From the NCBI RefSeq assembly GCF_003790525.1, contig NZ_CP033635.1: 64,000 nt of DNA, one strand, 5' to 3'. The translations under genes were made by a program, and so were the position numbers. Below are positions 9,885 through 37,882 of this stretch, one piece after another (the stretch's first letter is position 1; each line of letters begins with the position of its first letter). The notes below the pieces were generated by a model. The model did no database searches. It saw only the letters and a list, made by a program, of their open reading frames with translations, and was not told the DNA's origin. Source of the DNA: Escherichia coli (GTDB lineage Bacteria; Pseudomonadota; Gammaproteobacteria; Enterobacterales; Enterobacteriaceae).

Positions 9885-11402
9885 ATGTCTGAACGAGAAA
9901 CACGGGGAGCCAATGAGGCTATTGATTTTAACGATGAACTGAGAAATCGCCGCGAAAAACTGGCGGCACTACGTCAGCAAGGTGTGGCGTTTCCCAATGA
10001 TTTTCGCCGCGACCATACCTCTGACCAGTTGCACGACGAGTTTGATGCGAAGGATAACCAGGAACTGGAATCCTTAAACATTGAAGTCTCGGTTGCTGGC
10101 CGAATGATGACCCGTCGTATTATGGGGAAAGCCTCCTTTGTAACGTTGCAGGATGTCGGTGGCCGTATTCAACTGTACGTTGCAAGAGATAGCCTGCCAG
10201 AAGGTGTTTATAACGATCAGTTTAAAAAATGGGATCTGGGTGACATTATCGGTGCCCGCGGTACGCTGTTTAAGACGCAAACGGGTGAGCTTTCCATTCA
10301 CTGTACTGAGCTGCGCCTGCTGACTAAAGCACTACGTCCTTTACCAGATAAATTCCATGGTCTGCAGGATCAGGAAGTCCGTTATCGTCAACGTTATCTG
10401 GACCTCATCGCTAACGATAAATCCCGTCAAACGTTTGTTGTCCGTTCAAAAATTCTGGCCGCTATCCGTCAGTTCATGGTCGCGCGCGGCTTTATGGAAG
10501 TAGAAACCCCGATGATGCAGGTAATTCCAGGTGGGGCATCTGCTCGCCCGTTTATTACCCATCATAACGCTCTGGATTTAGATATGTACCTGCGTATCGC
10601 GCCGGAGCTGTATCTGAAACGTCTGGTTGTAGGCGGTTTTGAACGGGTATTCGAAATCAACCGTAACTTCCGTAATGAAGGTATTTCTGTTCGCCATAAT
10701 CCTGAGTTCACAATGATGGAACTCTACATGGCATATGCGGATTACCATGATTTGATTGAACTGACGGAGTCACTGTTCCGCACCCTGGCACAAGAGGTAC
10801 TGGGTACCACTAAAGTCACTTATGGCGAGCATGTGTTTGATTTCGGCAAACCGTTTGAAAAACTCACCATGCGCGAAGCAATCAAAAAATATCGTCCAGA
10901 AACCGATATGGCGGATCTGGATAATTTTGATGCTGCTAAAGCATTAGCTGAATCTATCGGAATTACGGTAGAGAAAAGCTGGGGGCTGGGACGTATTGTC
11001 ACAGAGATCTTTGATGAAGTGGCAGAAGCACATCTGATTCAGCCAACCTTTATTACGGAATATCCGGCAGAAGTGTCCCCGCTGGCGCGCCGTAATGATG
11101 TTAACCCGGAAATCACCGACCGTTTTGAATTCTTCATCGGTGGTCGTGAAATTGGTAATGGTTTTAGCGAATTAAACGACGCAGAAGATCAGGCTGAACG
11201 TTTCCAGGAACAGGTTAACGCTAAAGCTGCAGGTGACGACGAAGCCATGTTCTATGACGAAGATTACGTGACTGCGCTGGAATATGGTCTGCCGCCAACC
11301 GCTGGTCTGGGTATTGGTATCGACCGAATGATTATGCTGTTTACTAACAGCCATACTATTCGCGACGTTATTCTCTTCCCGGCGATGCGCCCACAGAAAT
11401 AA
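9885..11402 (+). CDS. lysU: Lysyl-tRNA synthetase, inducible isoform
   Basis: 505 aa from MSERETRG…; class II aaRS motifs; located next to the cad locus as for lysU. Confidence 0.93.
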
Positions 11403-11415
11403 ATTTCACTTAAAT

Positions 11416-11721: not shown

Positions 11722-12018
11722 CTACTTGTAAAACTGACGGAAATAGTCATCAACGGTCATAATGTTGAGGTCAAAATCAATATCCGGTAAGTCTAAGCAT
11801 TTAAGCCTGATTAAATCTTCGATTTCACTTGCGGCTAACGATGTCGTTATTGCGAAGGAATTTTCATTCAATTGTCGTGGTATCCCATATTCATCAGCCA
11901 CGATAGAGGAGAAATTCATATCATACATCAATGATCTTAACCTTAAGAACACTGAGGAATAAGATGATGGATAATCAAAAGAAACAACATAAGTATTGAA
12001 CTTGTTTTTACCTTCCAT
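11722..12018 (-). CDS. ghoS: Type V antitoxin GhoS (sequence-specific endoribonuclease)
   Basis: 98 aa from MEGKNKFNTYVVSFDYPSSY…; immediately upstream of ghoT on the same strand. Confidence 0.85.
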   Translation of the reverse strand: MEGKNKFNTYVVSFDYPSSYSSVFLRLRSLMYDMNFSSIVADEYGIPRQLNENSFAITTSLAASEIEDLIRLKCLDLPDIDFDLNIMTVDDYFRQFYK

Positions 12019-28946: not shown

Positions 28947-28981
28947 AGCCAACCTTAAGAACTTAAGGTTGGCTTAATTTT
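28947..28981 (+). terminator. adiC rho-independent terminator
   Basis: 13-bp stem agccaaccttaag / cttaaggttggct with 2-nt loop, followed by taatttt. Confidence 0.6.
28962..28978 (+). promoter_or_regulatory. PmrA (BasR) box in the eptA promoter
   Basis: CTTAAG-gttgg-CTTAAT: two hexamer half-sites with 5-bp spacing, about 45 bp upstream of the eptA start; overlaps the right arm of the adiC terminator. Confidence 0.55.
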
Positions 28982-31333: not shown

Positions 31334-31342
31334 TTGAATCTG

Positions 31343-32434
31343 ATGCGTTTTCTGCGCCGACCAATATCGCTGCGCCAACGGCTGATATTGACCATCGGGG
31401 CCATTTTGTTGGTGTTTGAGCTGATCAGCGTCTTCTGGCTATGGCATGAAAGTACCGAGCAGATTCAGCTGTTTGAGCAGGCGCTACGCGACAATCGCAA
31501 CAACGATCGCCACATCATGCGTGAGATCCGCGAGGCGGTCGCCAGCCTGATTGTCCCCGGCGTCTTTATGGTCAGCCTGACGCTATTTATCTGCTATCAG
31601 GCGGTACGCCGCATCACCCGCCCGCTGGCGGAGCTGCAAAAAGAGCTGGAAGCGCGCACCGCCGACAACTTAACGCCCATTGCCATTCACAGCGCCACCC
31701 TCGAAATCGAAGCGGTGGTTTCAGCGTTAAACGATCTGGTCAGTCGCCTGACCAGCACGCTGGATAACGAAAGGTTGTTTACCGCTGACGTCGCGCACGA
31801 ACTGCGAACGCCACTGGCGGGGGTGCGTTTGCATCTGGAACTGCTGGCGAAAACGCATCACATTGATGTAGCACCGTTAGTGGCTCGACTTGATCAGATG
31901 ATGGAGAGTGTCTCCCAGCTGCTGCAACTGGCGCGTGCCGGACAGTCATTTTCTTCCGGGAATTATCAACATGTAAAACTGCTGGAAGATGTCATTCTCC
32001 CCTCGTATGACGAACTCAGTACCATGCTCGACCAGCGACAGCAAACCCTGCTATTGCCAGAGAGCGCCGCCGACATCACCGTTCAGGGTGATGCAACCCT
32101 GCTGCGGATGTTATTGCGAAACCTGGTAGAAAACGCCCATCGTTACAGCCCGCAAGGCAGCAACATTATGATTAAGCTGCAAGAAGATGGCGGAGCAGTC
32201 ATGGCCGTTGAAGATGAAGGACCGGGTATTGATGAGAGTAAATGCGGGGAGTTGAGTAAAGCGTTTGTACGTATGGACAGCCGTTATGGCGGGATTGGTC
32301 TGGGGTTAAGTATTGTCAGCCGCATTACACAGTTGCATCACGGGCAGTTTTTCCTGCAAAACCGGCAAGAGACTTCCGGCACGCGGGCCTGGGTACGGCT
32401 GAAGAAAGATCAGTACGTGGTAAACCAGATATAA
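31343..32434 (+). CDS. basS: Sensor histidine kinase BasS (PmrB)
   Basis: 363 aa from MRFLRRPISLRQRL…; transmembrane, HAMP, HisKA and HATPase domains. Confidence 0.93.
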   Translation: MRFLRRPISLRQRLILTIGAILLVFELISVFWLWHESTEQIQLFEQALRDNRNNDRHIMREIREAVASLIVPGVFMVSLTLFICYQAVRRITRPLAELQKELEARTADNLTPIAIHSATLEIEAVVSALNDLVSRLTSTLDNERLFTADVAHELRTPLAGVRLHLELLAKTHHIDVAPLVARLDQMMESVSQLLQLARAGQSFSSGNYQHVKLLEDVILPSYDELSTMLDQRQQTLLLPESAADITVQGDATLLRMLLRNLVENAHRYSPQGSNIMIKLQEDGGAVMAVEDEGPGIDESKCGELSKAFVRMDSRYGGIGLGLSIVSRITQLHHGQFFLQNRQETSGTRAWVRLKKDQYVVNQI

Positions 32435-32499
32435 AGAAAGCTGCTGACCACCAGCACGCTGAACACGGTAGTTAAACTTTCATAAACACGGTTTTTCAT
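32410..32499 (-). CDS. pmrR: 29-aa membrane peptide PmrR, convergent with and overlapping the basS 3' end
   Basis: Below the ORF-track cut-off; the reverse complement reads MKNRVYESLTTVFSVLVVSSFLYIWFTTY*; its last 25 nt overlap the basS coding end. Confidence 0.7.
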   Translation of the reverse strand: MKNRVYESLTTVFSVLVVSSFLYIWFTTY

Positions 32500-32569
32500 T
32501 GCACTCTCCTCCGTTAACCTGGAGGAGAGTATGCGCGTCAGAGATTAAGTGAACCTTAAGAGTTCAATT

Positions 32570-32598
32570 GGCCTGATAAGACAGCGTCACATCAGGCC
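32570..32598. repeat. REP-like palindrome downstream of proP (probable terminator hairpin)
   Basis: ggcctgataag…cacatcaggcc palindrome. Confidence 0.55.
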
Positions 32599-32610
32599 AT
32601 CCGTTTCAGC

Positions 32611-34113
32611 TTATTCATCAATTCGCGGATGTTGCTGCACCAGGCGGGTACGTTTCGCCTGCAAATCGGCAATCTCGTGGTCAATATCATCGATTTTCTG
32701 CTCGATATTATCGTAATGCTCGACGAGAATTTCCTTCGCTTCCTGTATATCTGACGCCGCCGGTGTCGCACCTTTCAACGGACGATTTGCCGTCTCTTTC
32801 ATGGTTACGCCGGTGATTAAACCAACCACCGCCACTACCATCAGGTAATAGGCAGGCATCATCAGATTCTGCGAGCTTTCGACCAGCCAGGCCGCCAGTG
32901 TTGGCGTCAGACCGGCAACCAGCACCGAAATATTAAATGCCGCCGCCAGCGCGCTGTAACGGATATGCGTCGGGAACATCGCTGGCAAGGTAGAAGCCAT
33001 AACGCCCGTAAAGCAGTTAAGGATCACCGCCAGCATCAGTAACCCGGCAAAAATCAGGCCGATGACGTTACTGTTAATCAGAATAAACGCCGGGATCGCC
33101 AACACAAACAGTGCAACACTACCAAGTAGCACAAACGGACGACGGCCAAAACGGTCACTCAGCAAGCCCATCACCGGCTGGACAAACAGCATACCGATCA
33201 TAATGGCGATAATAATCAGCACCCCGTGGTCTTCGGAGTAATGCAGGTTATGCGACAAATAACTCGGCATATAGGTCAGCAACATGTAGTAAGTCACGTT
33301 GGTGGCAATTACCAGACCAATACATGTCAACAGGCTGCGCCAGTATTTAGTGGCAATCTCTTTAAACGAGACTTTCGGGCCATCCTGCAAACCTTCGCGG
33401 TCGCCCTGTTCCAGTTTATCAACATGCTGCTGGAACGCCGGAGTCTCTTCCAGCGCATGGCGCAGGTAAAGCCCGATAATCCCTAACGGCAGAGCGATAA
33501 AGAACGGAATACGCCAGCCCCAGTCGAGGAAGTTCTCTTCGCCGACAATGGTCGAAATTAACACCACCACGCCAGCACCCAGCACAAACCCGGCAATAGA
33601 ACCGAAGTCCAGCCAGCTGCCCATAAATCCACGTTTACGGTCAGGGGAGTATTCCGCAACAAATATCGACGCCCCGGTATATTCACCGCCGACCGAGAAA
33701 CCTTGTGCCATCTTACAGATCAACAGCAGAATCGGTGCCCAAATACCAATCGTGTCGTAGGACGGTATTAAGCCAATACAGAACGTACTGATCGACATAA
33801 TCACAATAGTGATAGCGAGGATCTTCTGGCGACCATATTTATCGCCCAACATACCAAAGAAGAGCCCGCCAAGCGGTCGAATCAGAAAGGGAACGGAGAA
33901 AGTGGCAAGTGCAGCAACCATCTGCACGCTGGGGTCAGCCCCCGGGAAAAAAACTTTACCTAATGCGTAAGCAACAAAACCATAAACACCAAAATCGAAC
34001 CATTCCATTGCATTACCCAGTGATGCTGCGGTAATGGCTTTACGCAGTTTACCGTCATCAATAATAGTGACATCACGAAGGGTAATCGGTTTTACTTTTT
34101 TCCTTTTCAGCAT
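32611..34113 (-). CDS. proP: Proline/glycine betaine:H+ symporter (osmosensing MFS)
   Basis: 500 aa from MLKRKKVKPITLRD…; 12 transmembrane segments plus C-terminal coiled-coil tail. Confidence 0.95.
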   Translation of the reverse strand: MLKRKKVKPITLRDVTIIDDGKLRKAITAASLGNAMEWFDFGVYGFVAYALGKVFFPGADPSVQMVAALATFSVPFLIRPLGGLFFGMLGDKYGRQKILAITIVIMSISTFCIGLIPSYDTIGIWAPILLLICKMAQGFSVGGEYTGASIFVAEYSPDRKRGFMGSWLDFGSIAGFVLGAGVVVLISTIVGEENFLDWGWRIPFFIALPLGIIGLYLRHALEETPAFQQHVDKLEQGDREGLQDGPKVSFKEIATKYWRSLLTCIGLVIATNVTYYMLLTYMPSYLSHNLHYSEDHGVLIIIAIMIGMLFVQPVMGLLSDRFGRRPFVLLGSVALFVLAIPAFILINSNVIGLIFAGLLMLAVILNCFTGVMASTLPAMFPTHIRYSALAAAFNISVLVAGLTPTLAAWLVESSQNLMMPAYYLMVVAVVGLITGVTMKETANRPLKGATPAASDIQEAKEILVEHYDNIEQKIDDIDHEIADLQAKRTRLVQQHPRIDE

Positions 34114-37480: not shown

Positions 37481-37882
37481 AGAAAATTCTTCCTTAAAGC
37501 AAATTTTATTACTTTTATTTAGCCAGATTGCTTTTGAGTTCTGTTTTCGGCTTTTATAATTACTGCAAGAAATAATTTTATATTTAGAGTGTTATTTTTT
37601 ATTAGAATAAATAACGTCTTCCGATACGTTTAAAACGTCAGAAAGATAAAAAATATCATTTGAATTAAAAAAAGAACAAGTAGAGCATTAACCTTATCTT
37701 AAATAATAAATGGAGGCAAAAAGATTATTTTCTTTTTGCGTTTCCTTTCAAATGAAAACGATCGTCGTCTAAAATCAGCAGTACCCCCGACAAACTCAGG
37801 GATTTTGTGTATAATTGCGGCCTTTTTCGGCAATCTGCCGTTTTTTGGCGCTTTTGCCCTGCTGACTTTTGAGGAAATCCAC

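Follow-up and report, generated by a model that had tools for sequence, protein, structure and literature searches.

The 3' end of basS (pmrB) in Escherichia coli is entered from the opposite strand by a reading frame of only 29 codons, and the question raised by this locus is whether such a short frame is a gene, what it encodes, and how it is expressed from the DNA that separates it from proP. The locus was analysed in a window of 64,000 nucleotides (contig NZ_CP033635.1 of assembly GCF_003790525.1), which is the whole stretch of DNA examined and to which all positions refer unless K-12 is named. Two kinds of evidence were combined: translation, membrane location, LpxT inhibition and phenotypes have been published and were taken from the literature, and the intact ORF, its family membership, the PmrA box, the Shine-Dalgarno sequence, the conservation across genera and the coding-type substitutions were observed here. 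The features of the locus are collected in Table 1.

Table 1 Positions of features at the pmrR locus in the window, with the end-points of published pmrB constructs
Feature	Position	Strand	Remarks
basS (pmrB)	31334..32434	+	last gene of eptA-basR-basS, convergent with pmrR
pmrR CDS	32410..32499	-	ORF, NF033224 match, RefSeq
pmrR/basS convergent overlap	32410..32434	both strands	25 nt, both stop codons included
proP	32611..34113	-	directly upstream of pmrR, same strand
PmrA (BasR) box CTTAAGGTTCACTTAAT	32544..32560	-	exact YTTAAK-N5-YTTAAK
Second exact PmrA box	28962..28978	+	upstream of eptA, internal control for the motif search
-10-like hexamer CATACT	32528..32533	-	10 nt downstream of the PmrA box; cross-species conservation
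Perfect 10-bp hairpin	32503..32530	-	5' arm ACTCTCCTCC 32530..32521, loop 32520..32513, 3' arm GGAGGAGAGT 32512..32503
REP-like imperfect palindrome TGGCCTGATAAGAC / GTCACATCAGGCCA	32569..32599	.	between the proP stop codon and the PmrA box
Rfam RF02052 'STnc630' match	32403..32568	-	183.4 bits, model positions 1-166 of 166
+86 construct	first base 32521 (loop)		no -10, no box; no colistin resistance (PMC8004244)
+103 construct	first base 32538		-10 and full hairpin, no box; MIC 4 (PMC8004244)
+126 construct	first base 32560 = first base of box		-10, hairpin and box; MIC 16 (PMC8004244)

The minus-strand ORF begins with ATG, runs for 29 codons to a TGA stop and is translated in the ORF listing as MKNRVYESLTTVFSVLVVSSFLYIWFTTY. 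Its existence by itself is within chance, because 74 ORFs of at least 20 amino acids overlap the surrounding 5 kb. The peptide was matched by the NCBIfam equivalog NF033224 ("LpxT activity modulator PmrR") with 73.9 bits and E = 6.4e-21, against a curated cutoff of 30 bits, and residues 1-29 were aligned on model positions 1-29 of 29; a search of Pfam gave no family for the 29-aa peptide. RefSeq lists the genes of E. coli genomes in the order pmrB, pmrR, proP at this position and labels the middle one 'pmrR: LpxT activity modulator PmrR'. The 401 nt around pmrR were found in 5408 of the 5426 complete E. coli genomes, many with 100% identity, the exact peptide is deposited in public protein databases under the name PmrR, and the counterpart in K-12 MG1655 is b4703, "small regulatory membrane protein PmrR". 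The match to NF033224, the annotation of identical chromosomes, the exact PmrA box and the conservation of box and ORF at 54 of 80 pmrB loci (see below) together indicate that the ORF is not a random one. The N-terminus of the peptide, MKNRVYES, carries the charged residues K2, R4 and E7, and residues 9-26 (LTTVFSVLVVSSFLYIWF) are hydrophobic, uncharged and sufficient in length for one membrane span.

A preliminary description of this DNA had claimed a 29-aa ORF on the minus strand over the end of basS, and its coordinates, length, strand and overlap all proved exact; its assignment to PmrR is borne out by the full-length family match and by the RefSeq pmrR gene at the same position. Re-translation gave an undisrupted frame preceded by a strong Shine-Dalgarno sequence, GGAGGAG, 6-8 nt ahead of the ATG, and the checks on translation that had been suggested (ribosome profiling or a tagged peptide) have been positive in published E. 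coli work (PMC11429745). It is therefore virtually certain that the locus is pmrR (b4703 in K-12), a PmrA/BasR-activated gene for a 29-residue single-span inner-membrane peptide, and nothing in the sequence counts against this identification. The gene agrees with pmrR of Salmonella enterica and of E. coli K-12 in the length of 29 amino acids, in its antisense position and in its PmrA-box promoter. Since it is annotated and the proposed tests of translation have already been published, pmrR is a known gene, and nothing new is reported on pmrR itself, whose role in lipid A remodelling and in polymyxin and bile resistance has been published along with its annotation.

[quoted passage not shown] Polymyxin resistance came back when lpxT was deleted on top of the box deletion, the defect was complemented by ectopic pmrR, and induction of arnT was unaffected by removal of the chromosomal box; the evidence for LpxT inhibition by PmrR in E. 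coli is thus of a genetic kind (PMC8129183). Ribo-RET reads at the PmrR start site rose 5-fold in low Mg2+ in E. coli, PmrR-6xHis of the K-12 allele was recovered in the membrane fraction, and the growth defect of a pmrR deletion was rescued by wild-type pmrR and not by an ATG-to-TAA mutant (PMC11429745). The growth defects caused in low Mg2+ by deletion and by overexpression of pmrR were independent of lpxT (PMC11429745), and LpxT may therefore not be the sole target of PmrR. According to the published mechanism, PmrB senses Fe3+ or mild acid, or PhoPQ input arrives through PmrD, and phospho-PmrA binds the box at 32560..32544 and activates a promoter without a -35 element. The peptide made then enters the membrane and inhibits LpxT, which adds a second phosphate at position 1 of lipid A, and this position is left free for the addition of phosphoethanolamine by EptA. 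The less negative surface raises resistance to polymyxin and lowers that to deoxycholate. For Salmonella, the decrease in surface charge is described as reducing Fe3+ binding and so exerting negative feedback on PmrB (Kato et al. 2012, as relayed in later papers). PmrR shares with MgrB, which inhibits PhoQ, and MgtS, which protects MgtA, a length below 50 amino acids, a single membrane span, the same stress network and action by binding a larger membrane protein (PMC11429745). It differs from both in sequence and in target, which is the enzyme LpxT and not a sensor kinase or a transporter.

A PmrA box had been predicted around 32500..32560 on the minus strand, and an exact match was located in this interval, with its first base 61 nt from the pmrR ATG. 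The 64-kb window contains 2 exact matches, against 0.07 expected from shuffles, and the other one precedes eptA, whose operon is known to be activated by PmrA. A consensus sigma-70 scan returned no promoter, which is expected since the activator site stands in for the -35 element. Downstream of the box, at a distance of 10 nt (11 nt in one sequence), lies a hexamer of the form NANACT, whose A at position 2 and T at position 6 occur without exception in the 52 distinct sequences from the survey described below. Judged from this conservation and from published deletions, the invariant A2 and T6 are probably the signature of a -10 element. The last three bases of CATACT are at the same time the first three bases of the 5' arm of a hairpin. 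By standard promoter geometry, PmrA-dependent transcription would start where the hairpin loop begins, at about 32521..32519, and a start near 32521 would give a leader of about 22 nt in which the Shine-Dalgarno sequence is predicted to be unpaired. An E. coli transcriptional reporter with the region just upstream of pmrR has been reported to give no response to low Mg2+ (PMC11429745). One terminator-like site, within the pmrR ORF (32456..32442, minus strand), came out of the sigma-70 scan as well and was attributed to chance, 0.4 such sites being expected per region; it was dismissed as a terminator because it would cut the mRNA before the pmrR stop codon.

Conservation was surveyed with a BasS scan in one genome per species, which yielded 80 pmrB loci at which the presence or absence of the small ORF was scored without bias; Salmonella was not among the sequences retrieved with the chosen peptide patterns. 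A PmrA box with at most one mismatch, followed after 58-63 nt by the ATG of a hydrophobic ORF of 28-33 amino acids, was present at 54 of the 80 loci in addition to the window, and the small ORF of these loci lay on the opposite strand, abutting or overlapping the 3' end of pmrB. The genera with both box and ORF include Escherichia, Citrobacter, Klebsiella, Raoultella, Kluyvera, Kosakonia, Phytobacter, Pseudocitrobacter, Trabulsiella, Yokenella and Pluralibacter. Common to the 52 distinct peptides are a polar N-terminal stretch, a membrane span and a [G/S/A]-F-x3-W motif with invariant F and W. Pairwise differences at the three codon positions amounted to 0.48/0.31/0.56, the pattern expected for coding sequence. 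NF033224 was passed only by peptides of the Escherichia/C. amalonaticus type, and those of Klebsiella, Raoultella, Kluyvera and Kosakonia reached 0-18 bits against the model.

As a separate observation, Klebsiella, Raoultella and Kluyvera have unannotated peptides at the equivalent position behind the same promoter layout. The peptides of these three genera and of Kosakonia stand in public databases as hypothetical or uncharacterised, and the one of Klebsiella, with 30 amino acids, reads MQKINFREYLAVATALVIIVAFFHQWVLTF. The Klebsiella homologues have apparently been missed by current annotation, in a genus in which polymyxin resistance is clinically important.

The convergent overlap comprises the last 7 codons and the stop of pmrR together with the last 7 codons and the stop of basS, and it had been proposed to couple the expression of the two genes. 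In the comparison of pmrB loci, the convergent arrangement itself was conserved, and the length of the overlap varied by genus between -7 and +57 nt, with 25 nt in Escherichia, 4 nt in both Citrobacter amalonaticus and Raoultella, 22 nt in Klebsiella, 57 nt in Pseudocitrobacter, and values of 0 to -7 nt for several others. An overlap of unconserved size argues against a conserved coupling device, so that coupling as a conserved feature found no support. The peptide keeps its C-terminal motif also where there is no overlap, which indicates that the constraint comes from PmrR and not from PmrB.

Between the PmrA box and the start codon lies the perfect 10-bp hairpin, whose 3' arm contains the pmrR Shine-Dalgarno sequence and whose fold was calculated at -23.4 kcal/mol (z-score -4.2). 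An equivalent helix was found in 51 of the 52 distinct sequences despite very different arms, for example ACTATCC/GGATAGT and ACTGCCC/GGGCAGT. RNAalifold on a MAFFT alignment, in which differences in loop length offset the arms, recovered 6 of at least 10 pairs only, and the helix was therefore specified manually and counted with controls. In this alignment, 83.1% of the cells of the 10-pair helix were paired, against 38-58% when the partners were slid, and the covariation score was 0.297, against at most 0.19 in the slid controls; 0 of 500 shuffles came up to 0.297. One pair of the helix (35-56) occurs as AU in 17, CG in 17, GC in 6 and GU in 6 sequences. The locus thus has a helix that sequesters the ribosome-binding site and shows compensatory changes, as would be expected of a fold-back of the IS10 type. 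In predicted folds, RNA starting at 32521 had an open Shine-Dalgarno sequence and little structure (z = +1.24), and in RNA starting from the PmrA box the Shine-Dalgarno sequence was part of an 11-bp helix (-31.6 kcal/mol). The asymmetry between the strands (G-U versus C-A) weakly favours the pmrR-sense RNA, with mean energies of -15.8 versus -14.3 kcal/mol, the pmrR-sense strand being more stable in 31 sequences and the other strand in 19, and it leaves the strand undecided. A role of the hairpin as a canonical intrinsic terminator of proP or basS was ruled out, since it is followed by a T-run on neither strand.

The hairpin may also be reached by transcription from upstream. The gene directly upstream is co-directional in nearly all loci; proP occupies this place in Escherichia and C. 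amalonaticus, and uvrB does so in most others (Klebsiella, Raoultella, Kluyvera, Kosakonia and other genera). The distance from its end to the PmrA box is often below 50 nt, too short for a separate terminator. The P2 promoter of proP is RpoS-dependent and active in stationary phase. Term-seq of K-12 grown in LB to OD 2.0 mapped an RNA 3' end at 4332116 on the plus strand (Adams et al. 2021, PMC7815308), which corresponds to the A of the pmrR ATG (window 32499), 4 nt past the 10-bp stem. Because this end lies past the stem, the published data mean that upstream transcripts with the whole helix exist and end there. A Rho-dependent termination region was mapped on the pmrR strand with its peak at 4332468 (Rho score 8.6, p = 2.7e-37; PMC7815308), at about 32147 of the window, which is inside antisense basS about 350 nt downstream. 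Intrinsic termination is the less likely origin of the mapped 3' end, as no T-run follows the hairpin on either strand; Rho termination with trimming back to the stem would more likely account for it. The sole locus without the hairpin was that of Pantoea sp. A4, where the upstream neighbour is a divergent class-III aminotransferase gene about 380 nt away; as a single natural control, it carries little weight.

These data led us to a tentative model, which we consider a serious possibility somewhat short of probable, in which the pmrR promoter is nested in the 3'-terminal hairpin of the upstream gene, read-through RNA is masked, PmrA-initiated RNA is translated, and the Klebsiella-type peptides are counterparts of PmrR. 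The -10 element and discriminator would form the 5' arm of the hairpin, and the Shine-Dalgarno sequence would lie in its 3' arm. Read-through RNA would carry the whole helix, at which it would end or to which it would be trimmed; it would remain untranslated and exposed to Rho-dependent termination inside antisense basS. PmrA-initiated RNA would start at the loop, would lack the masking arm and would be translated. If this model is true, the output of PmrR would be strictly PmrA-dependent despite constant traffic from upstream, and from the layout one would expect the 30-aa peptides left unannotated in Klebsiella and related genera to be counterparts of PmrR. Sharing of arms between hairpin and promoter suggests a compact way of tying a small regulatory peptide to its activator. 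The transposase mRNA of IS10/Tn10 reportedly undergoes fold-back inhibition that shields the gene from outside promoters. The likeness would consist in a masking arm upstream of the gene's own start, which for pmrR is the start placed by promoter geometry, so that only outside transcripts would be translationally silent. Unlike in IS10, the anti-Shine-Dalgarno arm of pmrR overlaps the -10/discriminator of an activator-dependent promoter, and the upstream mRNA has its mapped 3' end at this hairpin.

The same helix could instead lie within the PmrA-dependent pmrR mRNA and throttle or condition its translation, as a thermosensor or with the aid of an unfolding factor. Sequestration of the Shine-Dalgarno sequence and covariation of the helix would agree with such a device, but A2 and T6 of NANACT are invariant at a fixed distance from the PmrA box, and RNA from 32521 folds with the Shine-Dalgarno sequence open. 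Moreover, only 10-13 nt lie between box and arm, so that under standard sigma-70 geometry a PmrA-activated start cannot precede the 5' arm. We therefore regard a hairpin within the PmrA-dependent mRNA as unlikely. A further interpretation comes from work on pmrB plasmids, in which 103-126 bp of downstream DNA were needed for colistin resistance and the +86 and +126 constructs were about 315-fold apart in their level of pmrB mRNA; the authors explained the deletion series by a pmrB 3' UTR, and the 90-bp ORF and the 25-bp overlap are explicitly mentioned in their paper (PMC8004244). The region would then mainly be a 3' untranslated element of basS/pmrB that sets the pmrB mRNA level, with the antisense overlap as its functional point, and convergent transcription into basS is indeed real, as the Rho region on the pmrR strand inside basS attests (PMC7815308). 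However, when the end-points of the constructs were placed on the window by mapping their primers, the three critical ones fell on the loop, the -10 hexamer and the first base of the PmrA box. Removal of the chromosomal box alone gives the polymyxin phenotype with arnT induction intact, and ectopic pmrR complements this deletion (PMC8129183), neither of which speaks for a 3' UTR effect; nor do the overlap, which is zero or negative in many genera, and the basS strand, on which no T-run follows the hairpin. A 3' untranslated element as the main function of the region is thus quite improbable. What was published as a "pmrB 3'-UTR" effect on colistin resistance can be understood as a deletion analysis of the pmrR promoter, because the end-points coincide with promoter elements and because this agrees with the chromosomal box deletion (PMC8129183). 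The deletion series also fits the model of a promoter nested in the hairpin.

The locus is also filed in Rfam as an enterobacterial small RNA, which raises the possibility that it encodes a non-coding, Hfq-binding RNA (STnc630) and contains the 29-codon frame only incidentally. RF02052 is matched over its full length and far above the gathering threshold (183.4 bits against 55 bits), so that the covariance model is aligned end to end with the same DNA as the pmrR locus. A text search of the literature for STnc630 gave no match; its details are found in supplements of PMC2515195. The family goes back to Sittka et al. 2008, where STnc630 is the LT2 proP/basS intergenic region 4532473-4532638, with 27 reads in the Salmonella Hfq co-immunoprecipitation, compared with 1 read in the control, and with "nd" entered for the Northern (PMC2515195 supplement). 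According to the paper, candidate coordinates of this kind represent the whole intergenic region (PMC2515195), and no discrete non-coding RNA with defined ends was found behind the name. Since the bounds of STnc630 are simply those of the entire LT2 intergenic region, the family corresponds to pmrR plus its promoter and not to a demonstrated non-coding RNA. Within the match lie the PmrA box, the hairpin and the complete pmrR ORF, and the RF02052 consensus itself includes the PmrA box, the hairpin (as part of the consensus structure), the Shine-Dalgarno sequence and the beginning of the ORF. Against an incidental frame also stand the codon periodicity of the substitutions and the published translation, peptide detection and start-codon-dependent complementation (PMC11429745). 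A small RNA as the exclusive explanation is largely refuted by these facts and is very improbable, and an added role at the RNA level may exist beside the peptide. That a curated Rfam "sRNA" family is actually a promoter with a translated ORF, the pmrR CDS, matters for annotation pipelines.

Finally, the window was compared with K-12 over a 261-nt region, in which a single base differs: T at 32421, where K-12 has C. The site lies in the convergent overlap, and the T changes two proteins, with A27T in PmrR and Ala to Val in BasS. The PmrR of the window (T27) is therefore one residue apart from the experimentally tested K-12 peptide (A27). An exact match to a 57-nt probe centred on the site with the T allele was found in 215 of 5406 E. 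coli records, and the pmrR allele of the window is thus a minority allele.

The Shine-Dalgarno sequence of pmrR, the gene of a 29-codon membrane peptide, was found to pair with the -10/discriminator region of its PmrA-dependent promoter, forming a hairpin at window 32503..32533 (-) that is conserved and covarying at the related pmrB loci L003-L073. Because the masking arm lies in the promoter's own -10/discriminator region, a transcript from the PmrA-dependent promoter should be without it. A Term-seq 3' end at K-12 position 4332116 (window 32499) has been reported 4 nt past the hairpin stem (PMC7815308).

The end-points of a published truncation series of the 'pmrB 3'-UTR' (PMC8004244) were placed on window 32520..32560: +86 (bp downstream of pmrB) falls at the hairpin loop, +103 a few bases upstream of the -10 hexamer, and +126 on the base with which the PmrA box begins. 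The colistin-resistance steps reported for these constructs (none, MIC 4 and MIC 16, respectively) suggest that the series in effect dissected the pmrR promoter. An REP-like imperfect palindrome (TGGCCTGATAAGAC / GTCACATCAGGCCA) is also present at window 32569..32599, between the PmrA box and the proP stop codon.

The stretch at window 32403..32568 (-) gave a full-length match of 183.4 bits to Rfam RF02052 'STnc630'. This family, typed as an sRNA, actually consists of the PmrA box and hairpin together with the complete pmrR ORF. The boundaries of STnc630 are those of the full stretch between proP and basS in Salmonella LT2, where Hfq co-IP yielded 27 reads and the Northern result was listed as 'nd' (PMC2515195). 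Within the pmrR coding sequence, a terminator-like stem with a T-run (TGCTGGTGGTCAGCA GCTTTCTTTA; window 32442..32456 (-)) also forms a helix in the STnc630 consensus; the terminator-like element is probably incidental.

At loci L009-L063, from Klebsiella, Raoultella, Kluyvera, Kosakonia, Phytobacter, Pseudocitrobacter and further genera, the upstream gene is uvrB and not proP, and the PmrR position is taken by a peptide of some 30 aa whose PmrA-box spacing and hairpin are the same. These peptides score 0-18 bits against the NCBIfam PmrR cutoff of 30 and are named hypothetical or uncharacterised in public databases.

On the pmrR/proP strand, a Rho-dependent termination region (Rho score 8.6) has been mapped by DirectRNA-seq with and without bicyclomycin (PMC7815308). 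Since it lies inside antisense basS, antisense transcription enters basS and is curtailed by Rho. Where the two genes overlap, window 32421 carries T versus C in K-12, a change that is non-synonymous in both (A27T in PmrR, Ala to Val in BasS); over a 57-nt probe, no more than 215 of 5406 E. coli records match the window's allele exactly.

Positions of further features (window coordinates unless a locus is given)
Feature	Position	Strand	Basis
Rho-dependent termination region	~32147 (K-12 4332468 (+))	-	DirectRNA-seq
Example peptide at PmrR position, Klebsiella pneumoniae	L022:3550-3642	-	
naRNA4 (CssrE, nucleoid-associated non-coding RNA), Rfam RF02564	38236..38313	+	87.5 bits vs gathering score 59.5
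PmrA-box-like, one mismatch	11398..11414	-	motif search
PmrA-box-like, one mismatch	11799..11816	both	motif search
PmrA-box-like, one mismatch	37687..37703	-	motif search

The PmrA-box-like sites in the table may be due to chance, as the search allowing one mismatch returned 8 matches in the window against 3.1 expected.
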